A stretch of DNA of 13,664 bases from a virus (lineage: Duplodnaviria; Heunggongvirae; Uroviricota; Caudoviricetes), in IMG/VR virus record IMGVR_UViG_3300014691_000055, one strand, 5' to 3'. Position numbers and translations under genes: made by a program. Under the pieces are notes generated by a model. That model ran no database searches. It was not told the DNA's origin and was given only the letters and a program-made list of their open reading frames with translations. Numbering within the stretch: the stretch's first letter is position 1; the number at the start of each line of letters is the position of its first letter. Below are positions 1-12,025 of this stretch, piece after piece.

Positions 1-1248
1 ATGGCACTGAATATTCCATTCAGAAATGCGTACTATCGTTTTGCATCCAGTTACTCATTTCTCTTTTTTATTTCCTGGTCGCTGTGGTGGTCGTTATACG
101 CTATTTGGCTGAAAGGACATCTAGGGTTGACAGGGACGGAATTAGGTACACTTTATTCGGTCAACCAGTTTACCAGCATTCTATTTATGATGTTCTACGG
201 CATCGTTCAGGATAAACTCGGTCTGAAGAAACCGCTCATCTGGTGTATGAGTTTCATCCTGGTCTTGACCGGACCGTTTATGATTTACGTTTATGAACCG
301 TTACTGCAAAGCAATTTTTCTGTAGGTCTAATTCTTGGGGCGCTATTTTTTGGCTTGGGGTATCTGGCGGGATGCGGTTTGCTTGATAGCTTCACCGAAA
401 AAATGGCGCGAAATTTTCATTTCGAATATGGAACAGCGCGCGCCTGGGGATCTTTTGGCTATGCTATTGGCGCGTTCTTTGCCGGCATATTTTTTAGTAT
501 CAGTCCCCATATCAACTTCTGGTTGGTCTCGCTATTTGGCGCTGTATTTATGATGATCAACATGCGTTTTAAAGATAAGGATCACCAGTGCGTAGCGGCA
601 GATGCGGGAGGGGTAAAAAAAGAGGATTTTATCGCAGTTTTCAAGGATCGAAACTTCTGGGTTTTCGTCATATTTATTGTGGGGACGTGGTCTTTCTATA
701 ACATTTTTGATCAACAACTTTTTCCTGTCTTTTATGCAGGTTTATTCGAATCACACGATGTAGGAACGCGCCTGTATGGTTATCTCAACTCATTCCAGGT
801 GGTACTCGAAGCGCTGTGCATGGCGATTATTCCTTTCTTTGTGAATCGGGTAGGGCCAAAAAATGCATTACTTATCGGAGTTGTGATTATGGCGTTGCGT
901 ATCCTTTCCTGCGCGCTGTTCGTTAACCCCTGGATTATTTCATTAGTGAAGTTGTTACATGCCATTGAGGTTCCACTTTGTGTCATATCCGTCTTCAAAT
1001 ACAGCGTGGCAAACTTTGATAAGCGCCTGTCGTCGACGATCTTTCTGATTGGTTTTCAAATTGCCAGTTCGCTTGGGATTGTGCTGCTTTCAACGCCGAC
1101 TGGGATACTCTTTGACCACGCAGGCTACCAGACAGTTTTCTTCGCAATTTCGGGTATTGTCTGCCTGATGTTGCTATTTGGCATTTTCTTCTTGAGTAAA
1201 AAACGCGAGCAAATAGTTATGGAAACGCCTGTACCTTCAGCAATATAG
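1..1248 (+). CDS. cscB: Sucrose:H+ symporter CscB (oligosaccharide:H+ symporter family, LacY-like MFS permease)
   Basis: 415-aa ORF starting at ATG 1..3 and ending TAG 1246..1248; strongly hydrophobic multi-TM translation that I recognise from memory as E. coli CscB (MALNIPFRNAYYRF...); csc locus is known to lie next to argW in sucrose-positive E. coli. Confidence 0.88.
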   Translation: MALNIPFRNAYYRFASSYSFLFFISWSLWWSLYAIWLKGHLGLTGTELGTLYSVNQFTSILFMMFYGIVQDKLGLKKPLIWCMSFILVLTGPFMIYVYEPLLQSNFSVGLILGALFFGLGYLAGCGLLDSFTEKMARNFHFEYGTARAWGSFGYAIGAFFAGIFFSISPHINFWLVSLFGAVFMMINMRFKDKDHQCVAADAGGVKKEDFIAVFKDRNFWVFVIFIVGTWSFYNIFDQQLFPVFYAGLFESHDVGTRLYGYLNSFQVVLEALCMAIIPFFVNRVGPKNALLIGVVIMALRILSCALFVNPWIISLVKLLHAIEVPLCVISVFKYSVANFDKRLSSTIFLIGFQIASSLGIVLLSTPTGILFDHAGYQTVFFAISGIVCLMLLFGIFFLSKKREQIVMETPVPSAI

Positions 1249-2390: not shown

Positions 2391-2921
2391 TCATTTGCCA
2401 TCCTGCTGCGGCGGTTCTGGTAGCGGCATCCAGTGAGTTGCCTGCTCAATGCCATTACCCGGCTTAATCGTTGCTTGTCCTCGCCGAAAGGTACTTCCGG
2501 TATTGCGTGCGGAGCATATTAGCGGCTCAACCAGATCACTATCGAAATTCACCGAAATAAGTACGTTCTGATTCTTTTTCGGCATTCGCTCACTACAGCT
2601 TATCCAACCATCCGGAATTACCGCCACTGGCTTGGCGGTATAAAGCGGTGTTATATCTGCCCGAAAATTACATGCTTTATGCAGCCGCACCCACCGTTCG
2701 ACTTCTGCTTTGTCAGAATACATACCAGTGAACGTGTTATATTCACGGTCAATTTTCGTGAATGTTACCTTCCACGCCACCGGCTCTGCTTCCAGCGATG
2801 CCAGCGCAATCCGTGCCAGTTCTTCCGCTTCTTCTGCTGGCAGTACAACGTTGCTACCAGGTCCGTATGTTTCGCGCCACTGCTTGATTGTCCGCAGTCG
2901 CTCTTTGGTAATAGTGGTCAT
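2391..2921 (-). CDS. Phage protein with C-terminal DUF551-like domain (176 aa)
   Basis: ATG start overlapping upstream stop (ATGA at 2918..2921); C-terminal motif WISCSERMPKK...HWMPLPEPP typical of DUF551 phage proteins (from memory). Confidence 0.7.
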   Translation of the reverse strand: MTTITKERLRTIKQWRETYGPGSNVVLPAEEAEELARIALASLEAEPVAWKVTFTKIDREYNTFTGMYSDKAEVERWVRLHKACNFRADITPLYTAKPVAVIPDGWISCSERMPKKNQNVLISVNFDSDLVEPLICSARNTGSTFRRGQATIKPGNGIEQATHWMPLPEPPQQDGK

Positions 2922-3283
2922 GCCGTAACCCCTTCTTGATATTTTTCAAACCAGAACACAACCGGGTCAGATTTCATTTCAACCAATCCCATACGAACCA
3001 GCGCTTTGCCTTTCCCGGACGCAAGAAATTCACGACGACCATCACTGATAATTCGCCGATAATCTTCCAGGCTACTGCAATGCTTGTGCAGATTGCATGG
3101 GTGGCATGCCGGAACCATGTTGGATATATCGTCACGTTCCTGGTGAAGCATATTCCCAGCAAAACGAATGACCGGTTTTACATGGTCTGCATGCCACTTT
3201 TCGCCAAGTTCGCAGCCGCAATAAGCACAGCGACCGCCGAACTTCATGCGCAGCTCTGCACGTTGTTTTTTCGTCAGTGCCAT
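2918..3283 (-). CDS. HNH endonuclease (approx 121 aa from ATG at 3283; track ORF begins at upstream TTG 3373)
   Basis: CAYCGC...HADHV...ACHPCNLHKH zinc-finger/HNH motifs; ATG at rc 3281..3283 with AAGGAA SD; stop overlaps next gene start. Confidence 0.72.
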   Translation of the reverse strand: MALTKKQRAELRMKFGGRCAYCGCELGEKWHADHVKPVIRFAGNMLHQERDDISNMVPACHPCNLHKHCSSLEDYRRIISDGRREFLASGKGKALVRMGLVEMKSDPVVFWFEKYQEGVTA

Positions 3284-3284
3284 T

Positions 3285-3503
3285 TCAGTTTTCCTTATAT
3301 GGATTAATTTTATTGTGCAGTGTATTGAACGACGCCCATACCACGTCGTTATACAATTCAATAACTGGCTCAATTATTTTCCCGATTGCCCAGACAAAAA
3401 TTAGCGGGGATATCGGTATCATCAACACGATAAACAGAATGAGAAACAGGAATTCTGTTGTTCTACTCTTTCGTGGATATTTTTTTCTGAATAATGTGAC
3501 CAT
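3285..3503 (-). CDS. Hypothetical small membrane protein (72 aa, one predicted TM helix FLFLILFIVLMIPISPLIFVWAIG)
   Basis: ATG at rc 3501..3503; stop 1 nt before the HNH start, so operon-packed; SD weak and ~26 nt upstream behind a GC hairpin. Confidence 0.45.
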   Translation of the reverse strand: MVTLFRKKYPRKSRTTEFLFLILFIVLMIPISPLIFVWAIGKIIEPVIELYNDVVWASFNTLHNKINPYKEN

Positions 3504-3942: not shown

Positions 3943-4189
3943 TTCTGTTCTCCCACGTTTTCAGACTTTCACCACAGAACGGGCAAAATGAAACTCGTAT
4001 TGGTGATTTAGAAAATTCACCGGAACGCAACATCACCAAATCAGGTCCACGAGTTAAACTCTCATTCCAGATTTTGTATATCAGCAGACCCTTTCGCGTC
4101 GTGCATTCAGCATCATGCTCAAGAGACTTTGCCAGTGCTGCACATGGTTCTATCTTGTTGCTATTAATTTGGCATTTTGACTCACTCAC
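3935..4189 (-). CDS. Hypothetical Cys-containing small protein (84 aa, C-terminal CPFCGE, possible zinc ribbon), GTG start
   Basis: GTG (rc 4187..4189) preceded by AAGGAGG SD at 6-nt spacing; start overlaps methyltransferase stop (GTGAGTGA). Confidence 0.5.
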   Translation of the reverse strand: MSESKCQINSNKIEPCAALAKSLEHDAECTTRKGLLIYKIWNESLTRGPDLVMLRSGEFSKSPIRVSFCPFCGESLKTWENRNE

Positions 4190-4667
4190 TGGTCGCCTCC
4201 TTCACAAAAATAATCCAGTGTGTTTTATCGTTCTTGCCGGTACGCTGGCTGATAACTGGTTTCGCGTTGGTTAGTGCCAATATCTGGCTAACCGGTATTT
4301 GCGTTTCATTCCATTTAAATATCAGAACGCCATGTGGACACAACACACGAAAGGCTTCTATAAATCCCTGTCGCAAATCATCACGCCAGGTATCTTTATT
4401 CAGCCGTCCATACTTCTTTCCCATCCAGGCGTTATCACCAACACGCTCAAGATGCGGAGGGTCGAATACAACAACCGGAAACGACGCGTCTGCAAACGGC
4501 AGCGCACGAAAATCAGCGATAATGTCAGGACTAATAATCAGTTGTCGTCCATCACATAGCGTATGTTTCTCTTTCCGGATATCGCTAAATATCGCCCGGT
4601 CGTCATTCTTATCAAACCAGAACATGCGGCTGCCGCAGCACATATCAAGAATGGCCGGTGCGCTCAC
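4182..4667 (-). CDS. Orphan phage DNA methyltransferase (161 aa; motif I LDMCCGS, motif IV DPPH), GTG start
   Basis: Translation shows AdoMet-binding and DPP[HY] catalytic motifs; GTG start with AGGAGGTGA SD, GTGA overlap with upstream stop; no cognate restriction gene adjacent. Confidence 0.72.
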   Translation of the reverse strand: MSAPAILDMCCGSRMFWFDKNDDRAIFSDIRKEKHTLCDGRQLIISPDIIADFRALPFADASFPVVVFDPPHLERVGDNAWMGKKYGRLNKDTWRDDLRQGFIEAFRVLCPHGVLIFKWNETQIPVSQILALTNAKPVISQRTGKNDKTHWIIFVKEATSE

Positions 4668-5086
4668 AGCATCACCTCCTGATAATTACCCTGATAGAAC
4701 GCCAGCACGCGCTGCATAACCTCGCTCTTCCGGCACTCGCGACAGATTATGTTCTGACGCCTGTCGTAGCGGCGTATTTCTCCGTCAGGTAATGACCAGA
4801 TAAGGTCCGGATCAACCACAACCGGTTTCTTCAGCTTTGCCCTCGATAATTTTTTGCGGGCATTTTGCCAGTCTTTACGAGCCTGTTCAGACGGGAATAA
4901 CCCGTAGCCAGAATTGTATACATCGCCACTGGCAACCAGCTCTCTGGCGAGAACACTCATCAGATATCTTGTCGCACCTGTTTTCGCTTCCAGTTGTCGT
5001 AACGTTTCGCGCCCGCTCTGGCGCACGAGTTCAACAACCTGCCTCTTAATTTTTTCCCGCTCTTCTTGTGTAAATACTTTTGCCAC
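4664..5086 (-). CDS. Hypothetical phage protein (140 aa), possibly replication-associated; GTG start
   Basis: GTG (rc 5084..5086) with AGGAGG SD 5 nt upstream; located immediately downstream of the replication initiator; family not recognised. Confidence 0.55.
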   Translation of the reverse strand: MAKVFTQEEREKIKRQVVELVRQSGRETLRQLEAKTGATRYLMSVLARELVASGDVYNSGYGLFPSEQARKDWQNARKKLSRAKLKKPVVVDPDLIWSLPDGEIRRYDRRQNIICRECRKSEVMQRVLAFYQGNYQEVML

Positions 5087-5126
5087 AAGTCCTCCTGAAA
5101 ATTACCTCATGACCTGAAATAAACAC

Positions 5127-6197
5127 TTACCCCCTGAAGCCCGGTGGAATTTCGGTATCCGGTTCAGAAATATGATTCACACAACGCTGGTTGTTCGTGC
5201 CGCTTACCGGGAGCAACCAGGGGTTTTCAAAATTCCGGTCCGGTCCAAAAAACGTCGTCGCTCGCTGAACAAATTCCGTTCCCGTTTTCCCGGTAGCCGC
5301 TAGGTATCTTGCGTAACGCCTCACACCATCCAGCATGGCCTCTGGTGGCACCCCCTCGCGTAATCTGGCCTTCCAGGCACTGAAAGCGGATTTCTTCGGG
5401 TTTGCCCCGGCACGCAACGGGTATTCCCGCCAGACCTGTTCGAACACATCCGGATAATACACTCGTCCCACAGGCTGCCCGGTGTTTTCCGGGACTACCC
5501 GATCGGCTTCCCGCTGAATGGCGGAATCGGCTTCAGGCTGCTGCAGTTGGTGTGATTGCTCCGGCCTTGCGGTCATCACCTGCTGCACAGCGCCCGAATC
5601 GGCTTTCAGCGCATACGCTGAATCGGCTTCCGGTGTCGTGCCTGCTGGCTGACCAGGATTGACGGTCTGAACATCCCCTGCCTGGTTCGTGGCGTTTTTT
5701 ACGCCATGGACCATAGTGTTTTGATCTTCTTGATCTGTATCTTTATCTGTATCTTTATCTGTCGTGACTCGTCGTGACATGTGCGTGACATTTCGTGACG
5801 CGCCGTGACAATCTCCATTTTGTTCCCGCTTTCTTTCCCTCTCTCGCTGCGCCCTCTTGCGCTCTGCAGGAGATTTTGCGGTTTGCGAAATATTGCCGTT
5901 GTCCTCTTTAAGCACCTGGCGTTTTTCCCATCCAGTGATTAAATCACCATCAAGTACCCGCCCCTGCATCGTCTGCAAAATTGAATCAATTACCTCTTCT
6001 GTCACGTCGAGCGCACTTGCCAAATCTTCTGTCGTGACATCAATGTGACCTCGCGTGACATTTCGTGACGCGCTCACCAGGAGGTGGATATACACTGCCA
6101 TCACTGTTGCAATTGGCTGCCCTGACACCCTGGCAATTGTTCGCCACTTAGGGTCATTTGGCATGTCATGCCATAATCTGAGCCAGGCGTTAGCCAT
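5127..6197 (-). CDS. Phage replication initiation protein (lambda O-like replisome organiser) with origin iterons embedded in coding sequence
   Basis: Start chosen at ATG rc 6195..6197 (SD AGAGGTGA) rather than track GTG at 6203; N-terminal HTH-like region, low-complexity middle, conserved C-terminal region; two clusters of CGTGAC repeats inside the gene. Confidence 0.7.
   Translation of the reverse strand: MANAWLRLWHDMPNDPKWRTIARVSGQPIATVMAVYIHLLVSASRNVTRGHIDVTTEDLASALDVTEEVIDSILQTMQGRVLDGDLITGWEKRQVLKEDNGNISQTAKSPAERKRAQRERERKREQNGDCHGASRNVTHMSRRVTTDKDTDKDTDQEDQNTMVHGVKNATNQAGDVQTVNPGQPAGTTPEADSAYALKADSGAVQQVMTARPEQSHQLQQPEADSAIQREADRVVPENTGQPVGRVYYPDVFEQVWREYPLRAGANPKKSAFSAWKARLREGVPPEAMLDGVRRYARYLAATGKTGTEFVQRATTFFGPDRNFENPWLLPVSGTNNQRCVNHISEPDTEIPPGFRG
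5735..5809. repeat. Iteron cluster 1: tandem 12-bp ctgtatctttat x2 followed by five CGTGAC motifs at 10-11 bp spacing (5763, 5773, 5784, 5794, 5804)
   Basis: Read directly; helical-phase spacing; followed by 50-nt polypyrimidine tract 5811..5860. Confidence 0.6.
6001..6073. repeat. Iteron cluster 2: GTCACG / CGTGAC motifs at 6001, 6033, 6054, 6064 plus GTGAC at 6046; contains 21-nt exact copy gcgtgacatttcgtgacgcgc (6053..6073) of 5783..5803
   Basis: Exact 21-nt repeat 270 bp apart verified by position-by-position reading. Confidence 0.6.
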
Positions 6198-6268
6198 ACT
6201 CACCTCTTTTGATACCGAATCTTTTTACTCACAAATTGCCGGAAGTGATCCGGTATGAATATTGCGAG

Positions 6269-6694
6269 TCAATGCACAGCCACAATATTTCCTGCAGGGC
6301 CACCACGATTCATCTGGTTGAAACCAGCGATCGCCACTGCGACAAAATCATCAGCGTCTCTCACCAGTCGTTCCCGCGTCTCCACTAGTTCCCGAAAATA
6401 GGCTGAGCTATGGCTGCGCATTCGGGCCACCAGCAGAGGTGGCATTGCTTTTTCGATAGCTGGTAACAACGCCTGAATTTTTTTAACCGCATCAGGGGTG
6501 TCTTTCTCCACCCAGCGGAAAATTTTCTGAGTATTGCGAGCCATGGCTTCCGGATGGCTGTCGTCATACAGTTCCGGGAACGTCATTCCCAGCTCGAAAT
6601 ACGCTTTGGTAATTTTCGCAGCCGGTACTTTTTCGCCGTCCGGATGCGCCCAGGCATTCATCGCCATGCGGATGTGTTCATGCTTGATTTTCAT
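6269..6694 (-). CDS. YdaT-like protein (CII-like regulator; formerly annotated as toxin YdaT), approx 141 aa from ATG 6694
   Basis: MKIKHEHI... N-terminus and ...VH C-terminus resemble Rac YdaT (memory); ATG at 6694 has AAGGGGGGA SD; alternative upstream ATG 6766 would extend overlap. Confidence 0.65.
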   Translation of the reverse strand: MKIKHEHIRMAMNAWAHPDGEKVPAAKITKAYFELGMTFPELYDDSHPEAMARNTQKIFRWVEKDTPDAVKKIQALLPAIEKAMPPLLVARMRSHSSAYFRELVETRERLVRDADDFVAVAIAGFNQMNRGGPAGNIVAVH

Positions 6695-6920
6695 GAATCC
6701 CCCCTTGGTTAGAAGGCGGATTATGATCAGAACCGGGAATGACAACCGTCGGTATGTGTAACTCATATTTGAGCGCCCCGGCAGTGACTGCCTGAATTAG
6801 CAACGCCCATTTCCACGGAACCTCTTCCCCCCACATGCTGACTGTGGTTTTTGACGTTCCTAGAGCTGCGGCTGTTTTAACAACTCCGCCAAAATAGCCT
6901 AATACTTCTGATTTTTTCAT
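6678..6920 (-). CDS. YdaS-like Cro-type HTH regulator (80 aa)
   Basis: ATG rc 6918..6920 with GGAGCG SD; motif GGVVKTAAALGTSKTTVSMWGEEVPW typical of YdaS/Cro-like HTH; divergent from cI-like gene. Confidence 0.68.
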   Translation of the reverse strand: MKKSEVLGYFGGVVKTAAALGTSKTTVSMWGEEVPWKWALLIQAVTAGALKYELHIPTVVIPGSDHNPPSNQGGIHENQA

Positions 6921-7011
6921 GAGTCGCTCCATAAAACTGAACGCCAAAAGTTTAATAATCAAAACCGAAGAAAGTCAAGAAACAAAACCATCTGTGTTTT
7001 AAAATCAAAAC
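6921..7011. promoter_or_regulatory. Divergent immunity-switch region: PR-like promoter for cro-like gene (-35 TTGACT = rc 6973..6978), PRM-like promoter for cI-like gene (-10 TAAAAT 7000..7005, leaderless), overlapping AAAAC/GTTTT inverted-repeat operators
   Basis: Inverted repeats AAAACTgaacgccaaAAGTTT (6934..6954), AAAACcatctgtGTTTT (6984..7000), GTTTTaaaatcAAAAC (6996..7011); cI ATG has no SD and sits 6 nt after a -10-like hexamer. Confidence 0.5.
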
Positions 7012-8768: not shown

Positions 8769-8959
8769 NNNNNNNNNNNNNNNNNNNNNNNNNNNNNNNN
8801 NNNNNNNNNNNNNNNNNNNNNNNNNNNNNNNNNNNNNNNNNNNNNNNNNNNNNNNNNNNNNNNNNNNNNNNNNNNNNNNNNNNNNNNNNNNNNNNNNNNN
8901 NNNNNNNNNNNNNNNNNNNNNNNNNNNNNNNNNNNNNNNNNNNNNNNNNNNNNNNNNNN
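8769..8959. other. Run of 191 N (assembly gap or masked sequence)
   Basis: Read directly; all track ORFs crossing it (X-containing translations) are artefacts. Confidence 0.99.
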
Positions 8960-9553: not shown

Positions 9554-12025
9554 ATGAGTAAAGTCTTTATTTGCGCCGCCATTCCGGACGAACAGGCAAT
9601 AAAGGAAGAAGGTGCAGTCGCTGTAGCCACTGCCATTGAAGCCGGCGACGAACGCCGCGCCCGTGCCAAATTTACCTGGCAATTCCTGGAGCAATATCCG
9701 GCTGCTCAGGACTGCGCTTATAAATTTCTTGTCTGCGAGGATAAACCCGGCATGCCCCGCCCTGCCATCGACTCCTGGGATACCGAATATATGCAGGAAA
9801 ACCGCTGGGATGAGGAATCCGCTTCCTTTGTTCCGGTCGAACCAGAATCCGATCCGATGAACGTCAATTTTGACAAGCTGTCCCTTGAAGTGCAGAACGC
9901 GGTCCTGGTTAAGTTCGGTACATGTGAAAACATCACCGTTGATATGGCGATTGACGCGCAGGAATTACTGCAGGAAAACGTGGCTACCTTTGACGGGCAT
10001 ATCGTTGAAGCACTGATGAAAACGCCTGAAATTAACGCTATGTATCCGGAACGCAAACTGTTCGCTATCGGATGGGTTAAACACAAATGTAATCCGGGTG
10101 CCAAATGGCCCGAAATTCAGGCTGAATTACGTAACTGGAAAAAACGGCAGGACGCAGAGCGCAAAGAGACTGGAAAATGCACGTCTGTTGTTGATCTCGC
10201 CCGCGCCAGAGTCAATCAACAGAACACTGAAAACTCAGCAGGAAAAATCAACCCAGTCACTGCCGCCATTCGTCGCCAATACAAGCAGACATGGAAAACG
10301 CTGGATGAAGAACTGGCCTACGCTCTCTGGCCTGGCGATATTGATGCCGGAAACATTGACGGCAGCATCCATCGCTGGGCAAAAAATGAAGTTATCGACA
10401 AAGATCGCGAAGACTGGAAGCGCATCTCCGCATCAATGCGCAAACAGCCTGATGCGATTCGCTACAACCGCCAAACTATTTTTGGCCTTGTCCGTGAACG
10501 TCCGATCGACATTCACAAAGATCCTGTAGCGCTGAACAAATACATCACTGAATACCTGGCGACAAAGGGCGTGTTTGAGGATGAAGAAACAGACCAGAGC
10601 ACTGCTGATATTCTCCAGCCGTCAGCAGCACAAACTGATGCAGTGGAAACTGAAGTATCTGATACCCAAAAAAATGAAAGCGCGCTGGAAACTGAACCAT
10701 CTGTAGAGCGTGAGGGACCGTTCTATTTTCTCTTCACCGATAAAGATGGCGAAAAATATGGCCGCGCAAACAAACTTTCTGGTCTGGATAAGGCGCTGGC
10801 TGCAGGGGCTACTGAAATCACGAAAGAAGAATATTTTGCCCGCAAAAACGGTACATACTCAGGTTCACAACAAAATACTGGTACATCTGACACGATCGCA
10901 CAACCAGAGCCGGTAAAAGTTACCGCTGACGAAGTAAACAAAATTATGCAGGCAGCCAATATCAGCCAGCCTGACGCCGATGAACTGCTTGCAGTATCAC
11001 GTGGTGAATTTGTTGCAGGGATTAGCGATCCGAATGATCCGAAATGGGTGAAGGGGATTGAAACCCGCGATTCTGTGAACCAGAACCAGCAAGAAATGGA
11101 ACAGAACGACCAGAAAGCGGAACAAAACAGCCCAAATACGCAACAAAACGAGCCAGAAACGAAACAATCCGAACCAGTAGCACAACAGGAACAGGAAAAA
11201 GTCTGCACCGCCTGCGGTCAGAGCGGTGGCGGCAACTGCCCTGATTGTGGCGCGGTGATGGGCGACGCAACATACCAGGAAACATTCGATGAAGAGAATC
11301 AGGTTGAAGTTCAGGAAAATGATCCGGAGGAAATGGAAGGCGCTGAACATCCACACAAGGAGAACCCTGGCGGCAATCAGCATCACGCCAGCGATAATAA
11401 AACTGGCGAGGCGACAGATCCCTTAATTAAGGTGAACAGTCATCATAAGCTCACATCCACCAGCAGAGCGGGGATTCATCTGATGATCGACCTTGAAACC
11501 ATGGGAAAAAATCCTGATGCCCCGATTATCTCAATAGGTGCAATATTTTTCGAGCCACAAACCGGAGATATGGGACCGGAATTTAGTAAGACTATCGATC
11601 TGGAAACTGCTGGCGGAGTCATTGATCGGGACACCATTAAATGGTGGCTTAAGCAATCACGCGAAGCGCAATCTGCCATTATGACCGATGAAATCCCGTT
11701 AGATGATGCACTGTTACAATTGCGGGAATTTATCGACGAAAACTCCGGTGAATTTTTTGTTCAGGTCTGGGGAAATGGAGCCAACTTCGACAACACGATT
11801 TTGCGCCGTTCATACGAACGGCAGGGGATCCCCTGCCCGTGGCGTTACTACAACGATCGCGATGTACGCACAATCGTTGAGCTGGGGAAAGCCATAGACT
11901 TCGATGCCAGAACGGCTATTCCATTCGAAGGTGAGCGCCATAATGCACTTGATGACGCCCGTTACCAGGCAAAATACGTTTCAGTTATCTGGCAAAAACT
12001 GATCCCGAGTCAGGCTGATTCTTAA
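9554..12025 (+). CDS. RecE-like (exodeoxyribonuclease VIII-like) large protein, 823 aa, whose C-terminal ~185 aa form a DnaQ-like DEDDh 3'-5' exonuclease domain
   Basis: Central region (SRGEFVAGISDPNDPKWVKGIETRD ... CTACGQSGGGNCPDCGAVMGDATYQETFDEENQVEVQENDPEEMEGAEHPH) matches my memory of Rac RecE; C-terminus has Exo I MIDLETMG, Exo II WGNGANFDNTIL, Exo III HNALDDARY. Confidence 0.8.
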   Translation: MSKVFICAAIPDEQAIKEEGAVAVATAIEAGDERRARAKFTWQFLEQYPAAQDCAYKFLVCEDKPGMPRPAIDSWDTEYMQENRWDEESASFVPVEPESDPMNVNFDKLSLEVQNAVLVKFGTCENITVDMAIDAQELLQENVATFDGHIVEALMKTPEINAMYPERKLFAIGWVKHKCNPGAKWPEIQAELRNWKKRQDAERKETGKCTSVVDLARARVNQQNTENSAGKINPVTAAIRRQYKQTWKTLDEELAYALWPGDIDAGNIDGSIHRWAKNEVIDKDREDWKRISASMRKQPDAIRYNRQTIFGLVRERPIDIHKDPVALNKYITEYLATKGVFEDEETDQSTADILQPSAAQTDAVETEVSDTQKNESALETEPSVEREGPFYFLFTDKDGEKYGRANKLSGLDKALAAGATEITKEEYFARKNGTYSGSQQNTGTSDTIAQPEPVKVTADEVNKIMQAANISQPDADELLAVSRGEFVAGISDPNDPKWVKGIETRDSVNQNQQEMEQNDQKAEQNSPNTQQNEPETKQSEPVAQQEQEKVCTACGQSGGGNCPDCGAVMGDATYQETFDEENQVEVQENDPEEMEGAEHPHKENPGGNQHHASDNKTGEATDPLIKVNSHHKLTSTSRAGIHLMIDLETMGKNPDAPIISIGAIFFEPQTGDMGPEFSKTIDLETAGGVIDRDTIKWWLKQSREAQSAIMTDEIPLDDALLQLREFIDENSGEFFVQVWGNGANFDNTILRRSYERQGIPCPWRYYNDRDVRTIVELGKAIDFDARTAIPFEGERHNALDDARYQAKYVSVIWQKLIPSQADS

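Follow-up and report, generated by a model that had tools for sequence, protein, structure and literature searches.

The replication origin of phage lambda, ori-lambda, lies within the gene for its own initiator: iterons followed by a region of high A+T content are found inside gene O, and the O protein binds DNA with its N-terminal domain and the helicase loader with its C-terminal domain, the two being joined by a flexible linker (PMC6022878). The lambda iterons are four inverted repeats of 18-19 base pairs (bp), each of them bound by an O dimer (PMC6022878). Here we describe a related arrangement in 13,664 nucleotides (nt) of DNA from a tailed phage of the Caudoviricetes (IMG/VR record IMGVR_UViG_3300014691_000055), hereafter called the window, in which two arrays of a short repeat and an A+T-rich tract lie within a minus-strand gene for a replication initiator. 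In the Bacillus phage SPP1, oriL likewise lies within gene 38. The SPP1 protein G38P binds oriL to start theta replication and has a second, separate site, oriR, as PMC5615212 mentions in citing Missich et al. 1997. From the sequence of the window and of its relatives, we propose that positions 5716-6069 are probably the vegetative origin of a Rac/lambda-like temperate phage, placed inside its own initiator gene.

The repeat reads CGTGAC on the plus strand and, the gene being on the minus strand, GTCACG on the coding strand. Five plus-strand copies start at 5763, 5773, 5784, 5794 and 5804 (spacings of 10, 11, 10 and 10 nt) and form what we call array B; further copies start at 6033, 6054 and 6064 and belong to array A. 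In total the window holds 11 copies of CGTGAC, compared with 4.9 expected from shuffled sequences, and its remaining 12.5 kb contains two stray copies and no other array. An earlier, sequence-only reading of this DNA had reported five such motifs at 10-11 bp spacing between 5763 and 5809 and, 270 bp away, a second array with an exact 21-nt copy, and we find every one of these elements where it had placed them: positions 5783-5803 and 6053-6073 are identical, and the match ends exactly there, with no extension on either side. Array A comprises four phased units, one of them the degenerate GTCACA, which stands in the correct phase. Array A codes for a loop in the initiator's N-terminal domain (ASRNVTRGHIDVT, amino acids 45-57), where the predicted local distance difference test score (pLDDT) of the structure model falls below 50 at residues 49-54, and array B encodes the start of the linker between the domains, where pLDDT is again below 50. 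The core of the iteron is 6-7 bp long, (T)GTCACG(C/A), and occurs in direct orientation with weakly conserved flanking positions. We regard array B as the candidate core binding site of the initiator.

Repeats embedded in a coding sequence might have no function at the level of DNA, and could be the by-product of a repeated peptide or a slippage-prone tandem duplication that drifts neutrally in a disordered linker. Such an explanation gains some appeal from the two 21-nt copies, which encode ASRNVT in the same frame in both places, and from the position of both arrays in a predicted loop or linker, whose sequence is free to vary. ASRNVT does occur twice in the protein, as the sequence-only reading had noted, and the 21-nt unit, with two iterons and seven codons, is the sole unit that repeats the same peptide. 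The units of array B, taken from 5804-5809 to 5763-5768, fall in reading frames 1, 2, 0, 2 and 0, and the eight forward copies of GTCACG together use all three frames, being read as V-T, S-R or C-H-G. Because copies occur in all three frames, the peptide repeat cannot be the cause of the iterons; the repeated peptide follows from the DNA repeat and is not its cause. The spacing of 10-11 nt, moreover, is no multiple of three. We also recoded the same 358-residue protein in 20,000 trials, with synonymous codons drawn from local usage or with the gene's own synonymous codons permuted. Against the eight forward copies observed, the recoded means were 0.6 and 1.6; no recoded sequence had more than six copies, so that none of the 20,000 trials reached eight, and the largest cluster, which holds five copies in the gene, held four at most in the recoded trials.

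To place the arrays in an evolutionary context, we used a scan of one genome per species, which yielded 52 loci from Enterobacterales, Pseudomonas, Bordetella, Acidovorax, Variovorax, Chromobacterium and others, with N-terminal domain identities of 41-99%, and compared two zones of the gene, nt 116-186 (array A) and nt 376-500 (array B). A scan of viral contigs with the N-terminal domain was dropped as a test of conservation, having returned 99%-identical copies only. Both arrays occur at the same places in relatives of 41-86% protein identity. In the Pseudomonas phage phita81A, which shares ~70% nucleotide identity over the N-terminal half of the gene, all hexamers of both arrays are kept and the spacers differ. 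A GTCACG class can be defined that consists of 25 loci in addition to the window gene and phita81A; GTCACG is the dominant motif in both zones of its members, except in L088, and is missing from the rest of the gene in nearly all of them. Across gene and locus, the hexamer is nearly absent outside the two zones. Arrays compared across homologues, as the sequence-only reading had suggested, prove to be conserved independently of the codons that they form: in a codon alignment of 23 GTCACG-class genes, conservation at third codon positions is 0.79 within the hexamers compared with 0.51 outside them (Mann-Whitney p = 1e-5), and for array A the same alignment gives 90-100% at each position, whether first, second or third in the codon.

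The same two places carry other motifs in more distant relatives, namely GTAACG in five genes and CGAACG in about twelve. Genes of each class hold on average 6.3-7.1 copies of their own motif, compared with 0.04-0.8 copies of the others, and the switch from one motif class to another always affects both arrays of a gene together. A shared hexamer with at least two copies in each zone was found in 39 of 50 genes; among 372 pairs of control zones from the flanking DNA of these loci, only 10 had one. Successive copies are spaced by 10 nt in 131 instances and by 11 nt in 30. The equivalents of array B contain one to six copies, and the distance between the arrays changes among relatives in steps of roughly 10 nt, as a varying number of exact copies would by itself lead one to expect. 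The peptides encoded at the two arrays are unlike each other because the reading frames differ, and with a change of motif RNVTRGH and CHxESRNVT become NATERGRTQ and QTQPNAAERNRTP. Peptide changes that track the motif in this manner are what selection on the DNA motif would produce, with a single specificity reading both arrays. The loop encoded by array A is also the hot spot of insertions within the N-terminal domain, and the inserted peptides resemble translated iterons (in L085, L104, L106, L108 and L109). In two loci from Serratia/Pantoea (L124 and L133), the usual iterons are missing, and zone B (gene nt ~330-470) has repeats of the type ACTACG(T) together with a large insertion in the linker; these genes may have a different type of origin or an inserted domain.

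As judged from these relatives, the two-array layout is a conserved feature of the family and not a recent duplication; where the sequence-only reading had left the choice between a duplicated and a bipartite origin, the 39 genes with a shared hexamer in both zones favour the second, and the first is abandoned. A recent horizontal transfer of identical DNA, which could mimic conservation, is opposed by protein identities of 41-73% and by the varied spacers. Third positions are conserved while the spacers of relatives diverge, and arrays that encode different peptides nevertheless switch motif together. Repeats devoid of any function in the DNA are, in light of these patterns, hardly credible; the recoding null and the comparative data leave no room for a mere artefact of coding or slippage. 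Conservation of this kind shows, within the relatives compared, that the arrays and the adjacent A+T tract are kept by selection on DNA and not on protein.

The A+T-rich tract differs in composition between its two strands and contains the 40 nt of lowest G+C content in the gene, starting at 5719. Three copies of a 12-nt tandem repeat (5728-5763), which the sequence-only reading had rightly seen beside the array, belong to this tract, and two GATC sites (5723 and 5732) lie within it. Most of the motif-bearing relatives, in all three classes, have a purine-rich (A)GATAA(A) tract directly after the last iteron of array B or within ~15 nt of it; it is not found there in a few, for example L109, L111 and L121. 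In most genes that have it, the (A)GATAA tract holds or adjoins the 30 nt of lowest G+C content, even where the G+C content of the gene reaches 60-69% (as in L099 and L100, at 65-69%), and it is translated as DKDKDK, QIREDK or RLDKRR, depending on the frame used by the gene. The segment 5716-5762 is the best candidate for the unwinding element, and is likely to act as such. On the other side of array B lies the pyrimidine-rich tract that the sequence-only reading had reported next to the motifs. Such a tract is indeed present (82% pyrimidine over 5810-5860). As a DNA element it was rejected: the charged peptide that it encodes, S/AAERKRxQRERE, is conserved, whereas third codon positions vary freely, with a conservation of only 0.3-0.5. 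The pyrimidine tract is thus probably a feature of the protein. Table 1 lists these elements together with the genes and domains discussed below.

Table 1. Positions of the proposed origin elements, the initiator gene and its domains, and the genes that follow it, in window coordinates.
Feature	Positions	Strand	Description
Replication initiator gene	5127..6203	minus	358 amino acids, from the list of open reading frames; houses both arrays, the A+T tract and the pyrimidine tract
N-terminal domain coding region	5904..6197	minus	about amino acids 3-100; presumed iteron-binding, helical or winged-helix-like; conserved across 52 loci
Iteron array A	6033..6069	minus	GTCACG at 6064-6069, 6054-6059 and 6033-6038; degenerate GTCACA at 6044-6049
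Single inverted copy	6001..6006	plus	CGTGAC on the coding strand, 32 nt beyond array A
Pyrimidine-rich tract	5810..5865	gene on minus	plus strand 82-85% pyrimidine, coding strand purine-rich; encodes the charged segment AERKRAQRERERKREQNGD
Iteron array B	5763..5809	minus	five GTCACG, at 5804-5809, 5794-5799, 5784-5789, 5773-5778 and 5763-5768
A+T-rich, strand-asymmetric tract	5716..5762	minus	coding strand ACAGATAAAGATACAGATAAAGATACAGATCAAGAAGATC; G+C content 0.30; candidate DNA-unwinding element
C-terminal domain coding region	5130..5456	minus	about amino acids 250-358; homologous to the C-terminal domain of E. coli DnaT, tail SEPDTEIPPGFRG
DUF977/Ren-like gene	4664..5086	minus	downstream of the initiator; Pfam, PHROG
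S-adenosylmethionine-dependent DNA methyltransferase gene	4182..4667	minus	downstream of the initiator; Pfam, PHROG

A single copy of the hexamer in the opposite orientation, at 6001-6006, recurs at the same position in about half of the GTCACG-class genes and in none of the CGAACG class. Its status as an iteron is doubtful, since it coincides with the conserved peptide LDVT and is explicable by protein constraint alone.

The initiator itself is a full-length match to PHROG 3729, 'replication initiation protein' (E = 6.2e-257; residues 3-358 against profile positions 1-356 of 356), and its NCBI family is named 'phage replisome organizer', although RefSeq often labels the gene just "hypothetical protein". 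It is 98-99% identical in the cultured phages Tritos and Evi and is found in about 1647 of 5426 complete E. coli genomes (~30%), in Rac/Qin-like lambdoid prophages. It directly follows genes for a cI-like repressor, a Cro-like protein and a YdaT/CII-like protein. The whole protein matches no Pfam family at E <= 0.01, and against NCBIfam it yields a match to the DnaT tail only. The window's N-terminal domain resembles Phage_rep_org_N (PF09681) at E = 0.12, with a score of 12.8 bits where the cut-off is 23.3; nine of 30 N-terminal domains from relatives give collinear matches to this family that are likewise below threshold (best E = 0.0026), and helix-turn-helix families also match the N-terminal 100 residues weakly, collinearly and below threshold. 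This similarity is at most suggestive of a relationship to Phage_rep_org_N. Phage_rep_O was not among the weak matches of the 30 N-terminal domains, nor did it appear in the Pfam scan of the whole protein. The AlphaFold2 model has a mean pLDDT of 51.8, with helices at residues 4-79 (pLDDT ~60-77) and 252-304, a further predicted helix at 112-128, within the charged segment, and a long linker of low confidence from residue 130 to about 245. A Foldseek search of the PDB with this model returned nothing better than E = 0.65, with scattered helix-turn-helix and winged-helix regulators only, and a profile of the N-terminal domain had no match among PDB sequences.

Several points weigh against reading 5716-6069 as an origin that is opened by its own initiator. 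Eleven of the 50 relatives lack a hexamer common to both zones, and several of these (such as L120, L110, L112 and L129) keep array B and the A+T tract without array A. Because some relatives keep array B only, array A is not indispensable, and what we say of its role is a guess. These losses, which make array A dispensable for the core function, are what one would expect if the repeats were bound by the initiator, the origin consisted of array B and the A+T tract only, and array A served for control, as an autoregulatory roadblock inside the transcribed region, a titration site or a 'handcuffing' site for pairing. There is precedent in the iteron plasmids P1 and F, in which a second array (incA and incC, respectively) is used for control. 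We nevertheless think a purely regulatory array A rather improbable, given that it is present in 39 of the 50 genes in the orientation and phasing of array B, with a motif that covaries, and that copy-number control would seem of little use to the origin of a lytic phage.

A second group of objections concerns the binding protein. With the arrays inside the initiator gene, co-inheritance with the protein is automatic, and is no proof that the initiator is the binder; nothing significant came up for the N-terminal domain in Pfam, in the PDB or by fold comparison, and confidence in the structure model is low. Physical linkage and a fold that is not established would equally suit sites for another protein that by chance lie in the initiator gene; host factors, phage regulators and proteins of partition or packaging are examples. 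However, the motif class varies across gamma- and betaproteobacterial genomes and a few other lineages, and among the neighbours only the initiator's N-terminal domain stays the same; a host factor would not be expected to switch its specificity along with a phage gene. The arrays also adjoin an A+T-rich tract, as in known origins, and no array accompanies the two stray copies in the rest of the window. Binding by a protein other than the initiator therefore strikes us as very improbable. As further objections, no DnaA box (with up to one mismatch) and no IHF consensus occur in 5100-6300; a LacY-family gene, and not late phage genes, stands ~1.1 kb beyond the genes of the early region, so that the prophage copy in the window may be a truncated remnant; and we found no paper on the origin of this initiator family. 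Searches of the literature on Rac oriJ, the Eru modules of Stx phages, DnaT-like phage proteins and GTCACG iterons likewise gave nothing on this family. The Rac prophage of K-12 has a different replication module (ydaU-ydaV), and oriJ is therefore probably not the element described here. An origin within the initiator gene remains, on balance, the interpretation that we favour.

The C-terminal half of the initiator suggests how such an origin might be connected to the host machinery. A profile of the family matches DnaT sequences in the PDB (6aep, E = 4e-11; 2ru8, E = 6.5e-9; 9zbt_D, DnaT 86-179, E = 1.3e-8), and the homology takes in the terminal SEPDxxIPPGFRG; the window sequence used singly matches DnaT over its last 22-24 residues only. 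PF17948, the DnaT-like domain that binds single-stranded DNA, is not reached by the window protein; it is present in some relatives from E. coli O157 that share the N-terminal domain. The C-terminal domain of DnaT forms filaments on lagging-strand single-stranded DNA, marks the site of helicase loading and docks on PriA (PMC13377028). A contact for the extreme C-terminal tail of DnaT was not found in the preprimosome paper. Four copies of (A)ATCGGCTTC (plus strand, 5502-5633), all in frame and located where the linker is acidic, encode EADS/KADS/EADR repeats, which are also present in phage POCJ13, where that half of the gene is shared.

The Pfam and PHROG assignments of the downstream genes include no helicase or helicase loader after the initiator, in agreement with the sequence-only reading; the genes that follow are the DUF977/Ren-like gene and the methyltransferase gene, and the downstream gene order is the same in E. 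coli S51. Among 45 relatives with the same N-terminal domain, a lambda-P-like gene adjoins the initiator in 12, and DnaC-like, DnaB-like or primase-helicase genes adjoin it in some others. In phage POCJ13, a DnaC-like gene accompanies the same C-terminal domain as in the window. Relatives differ in their downstream genes and in the C-terminal domain, and what stays constant is the N-terminal domain of the initiator. For the POCJ13-type relative, which has the same C-terminal domain and another N-terminal domain, no comparable iteron array was detected at the settings used, and for this reason the idea that each N-terminal type has iterons of its own cannot be extended to that type. A link between the methyltransferase, the two GATC sites of the A+T tract and the use of the origin is conceivable. 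Further downstream of the origin, a gene for an HNH endonuclease occupies 2918-3373 on the minus strand.

We envisage that monomers of the N-terminal domain would bind the iterons head-to-tail and side by side, one per turn on one face of the helix. Array B and the A+T tract, both in the stretch that codes for the linker, would make up the core origin, and array A, ~230 bp upstream in the segment that encodes the loop, would be an auxiliary site that raises the local concentration of the initiator or promotes cooperative loading, looping or wrapping. The resulting strain could melt the A+T tract, possibly helped by transcription through the gene. The DnaT-like C-terminal domain might then engage the exposed single-stranded DNA, host primosome proteins, or both, and host DnaC would load host DnaB, which would explain why no loader gene is present. 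The last two steps find support in the absence of a loader or helicase gene after the initiator, in the P-, DnaC- or DnaB-like neighbours of relatives and in the DnaC-like gene of POCJ13. A bolder version of this proposal, which we hold to be possible but unlikely, is that these phages represent a distinct and widespread design of prophage origin in proteobacteria, in which the two arrays form a single two-part origin, a filament of the initiator loops or wraps the DNA to melt (GATAAA)n, and the DnaT-like domain takes over the restart machinery, through a filament on single-stranded DNA or through docking on PriA, such that DnaB-DnaC is loaded without a phage loader. If true, a sequence-specific origin would feed into the restart primosome.

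Other parts of the window bear on the state of the prophage. It also encodes a RecE-like exonuclease, an excisionase and an integrase. The 823-residue product of 9554-12025 (plus strand) has a partial likeness to exonuclease VIII (RecE), at an NCBIfam E value of 1e-78 that is far below the curated cut-off, with a C-terminal Rv2179c-like 3'-5' exoribonuclease/RNase T fold (Pfam E = 5e-67) and a long middle part of low complexity, rich in Q and E. The LacY-family sugar symporter gene is complete (1..1248; Pfam E = 1e-193) and lies ~1.1 kb beyond a DUF551 gene (2391..2921), the last of the phage-like early genes. Q, lysis and structural genes are absent from the window, and E. coli S51 has a full late region at that place; this prophage copy may have been truncated or rearranged. 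The repressor region and the exonuclease gene are separated by a run of 191 N (8769-8959), masked or unresolved sequence; small genes such as ydfB, ydfC and dicB occupy the equivalent segment in Tritos and E. coli S51, and the DicF small RNA is annotated in Tritos, so a DicF-like RNA could be hidden in the run. No Rfam family and no tRNA gene was detected in the window. The open reading frames of the YdaT/CII-like (6269..6766) and Cro-like (6678..6962) genes, both on the minus strand, overlap by 89 nt. The true start of the YdaT/CII-like gene is probably an internal methionine, that of MKIKHEH, because the YdaT-like gene of Tritos, with 142 codons, overlaps the Cro-like gene by 4 nt only.

If our interpretation is correct, the origin is narrowed to ~350 bp, its iteron is defined as (T)GTCACG(C/A) and a tract for unwinding can be proposed, which together amount to an annotation rule for hundreds of prophages. 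The GTCACG, GTAACG and CGAACG classes would provide natural material for specificity swaps. The locus is also a case of overlapping codes, in which a DNA signal sits in a loop and a linker of the protein and dictates the peptide there. A DnaT-like C-terminal domain without an adjacent loader gene points to a possible route by which the origin is handed over to the helicase loading of the host.

Phage P4 (ori and crr) and the plasmids P1 and F (origin iterons and a control array) have two clusters of an initiator-binding repeat, one at the site of opening and the other required or modulating. The second cluster is kilobases away in P4 and flanks the rep gene in P1 and F, and the repeats are typically longer than here, ~19-22 bp in P1 and F. 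In the window, by contrast, both clusters lie inside one open reading frame with a spacing of one helical turn, and the initiators are unrelated. The initiator shares with SPP1 G38P the NCBI name and the weak, collinear N-terminal similarity to Phage_rep_org_N, which is below threshold and does not establish homology; the SPP1 sites, however, are tens of kilobases apart, and SPP1 has its own loader, G39P, and helicase, G40P, whereas here ~230 bp and a single gene contain both arrays and neither a loader nor a helicase is adjacent. Compared with E. coli DnaT (primosomal protein I, of the PriA-PriB-DnaT restart pathway), the N-terminal oligomerisation domain and acidic linker are replaced by a presumed origin-binding domain and a long linker, and DnaT acts at abandoned forks without sequence specificity, unlike the proposed initiator. 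The proposed origin follows the design of lambda and its lambdoid and Stx-phage relatives: it lies within the initiator gene, with iterons and then an A+T region following each other along the direction of transcription in the part that encodes the linker, and the gene directly follows cI, cro and cII in the genome, with a lambda-P-like gene adjacent in many relatives. Unlike in lambda, the iterons of the window are direct 6-bp cores every 10-11 bp and not inverted repeats of 18-19 bp, two arrays are present, one of them in the region that encodes the presumed DNA-binding domain, and the initiator is not a Phage_rep_O protein, its C-terminal domain being DnaT-like and not P-binding, with no P gene after it. 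Current ideas are not overturned; rather, the lambda model would be extended to a different family of initiators.

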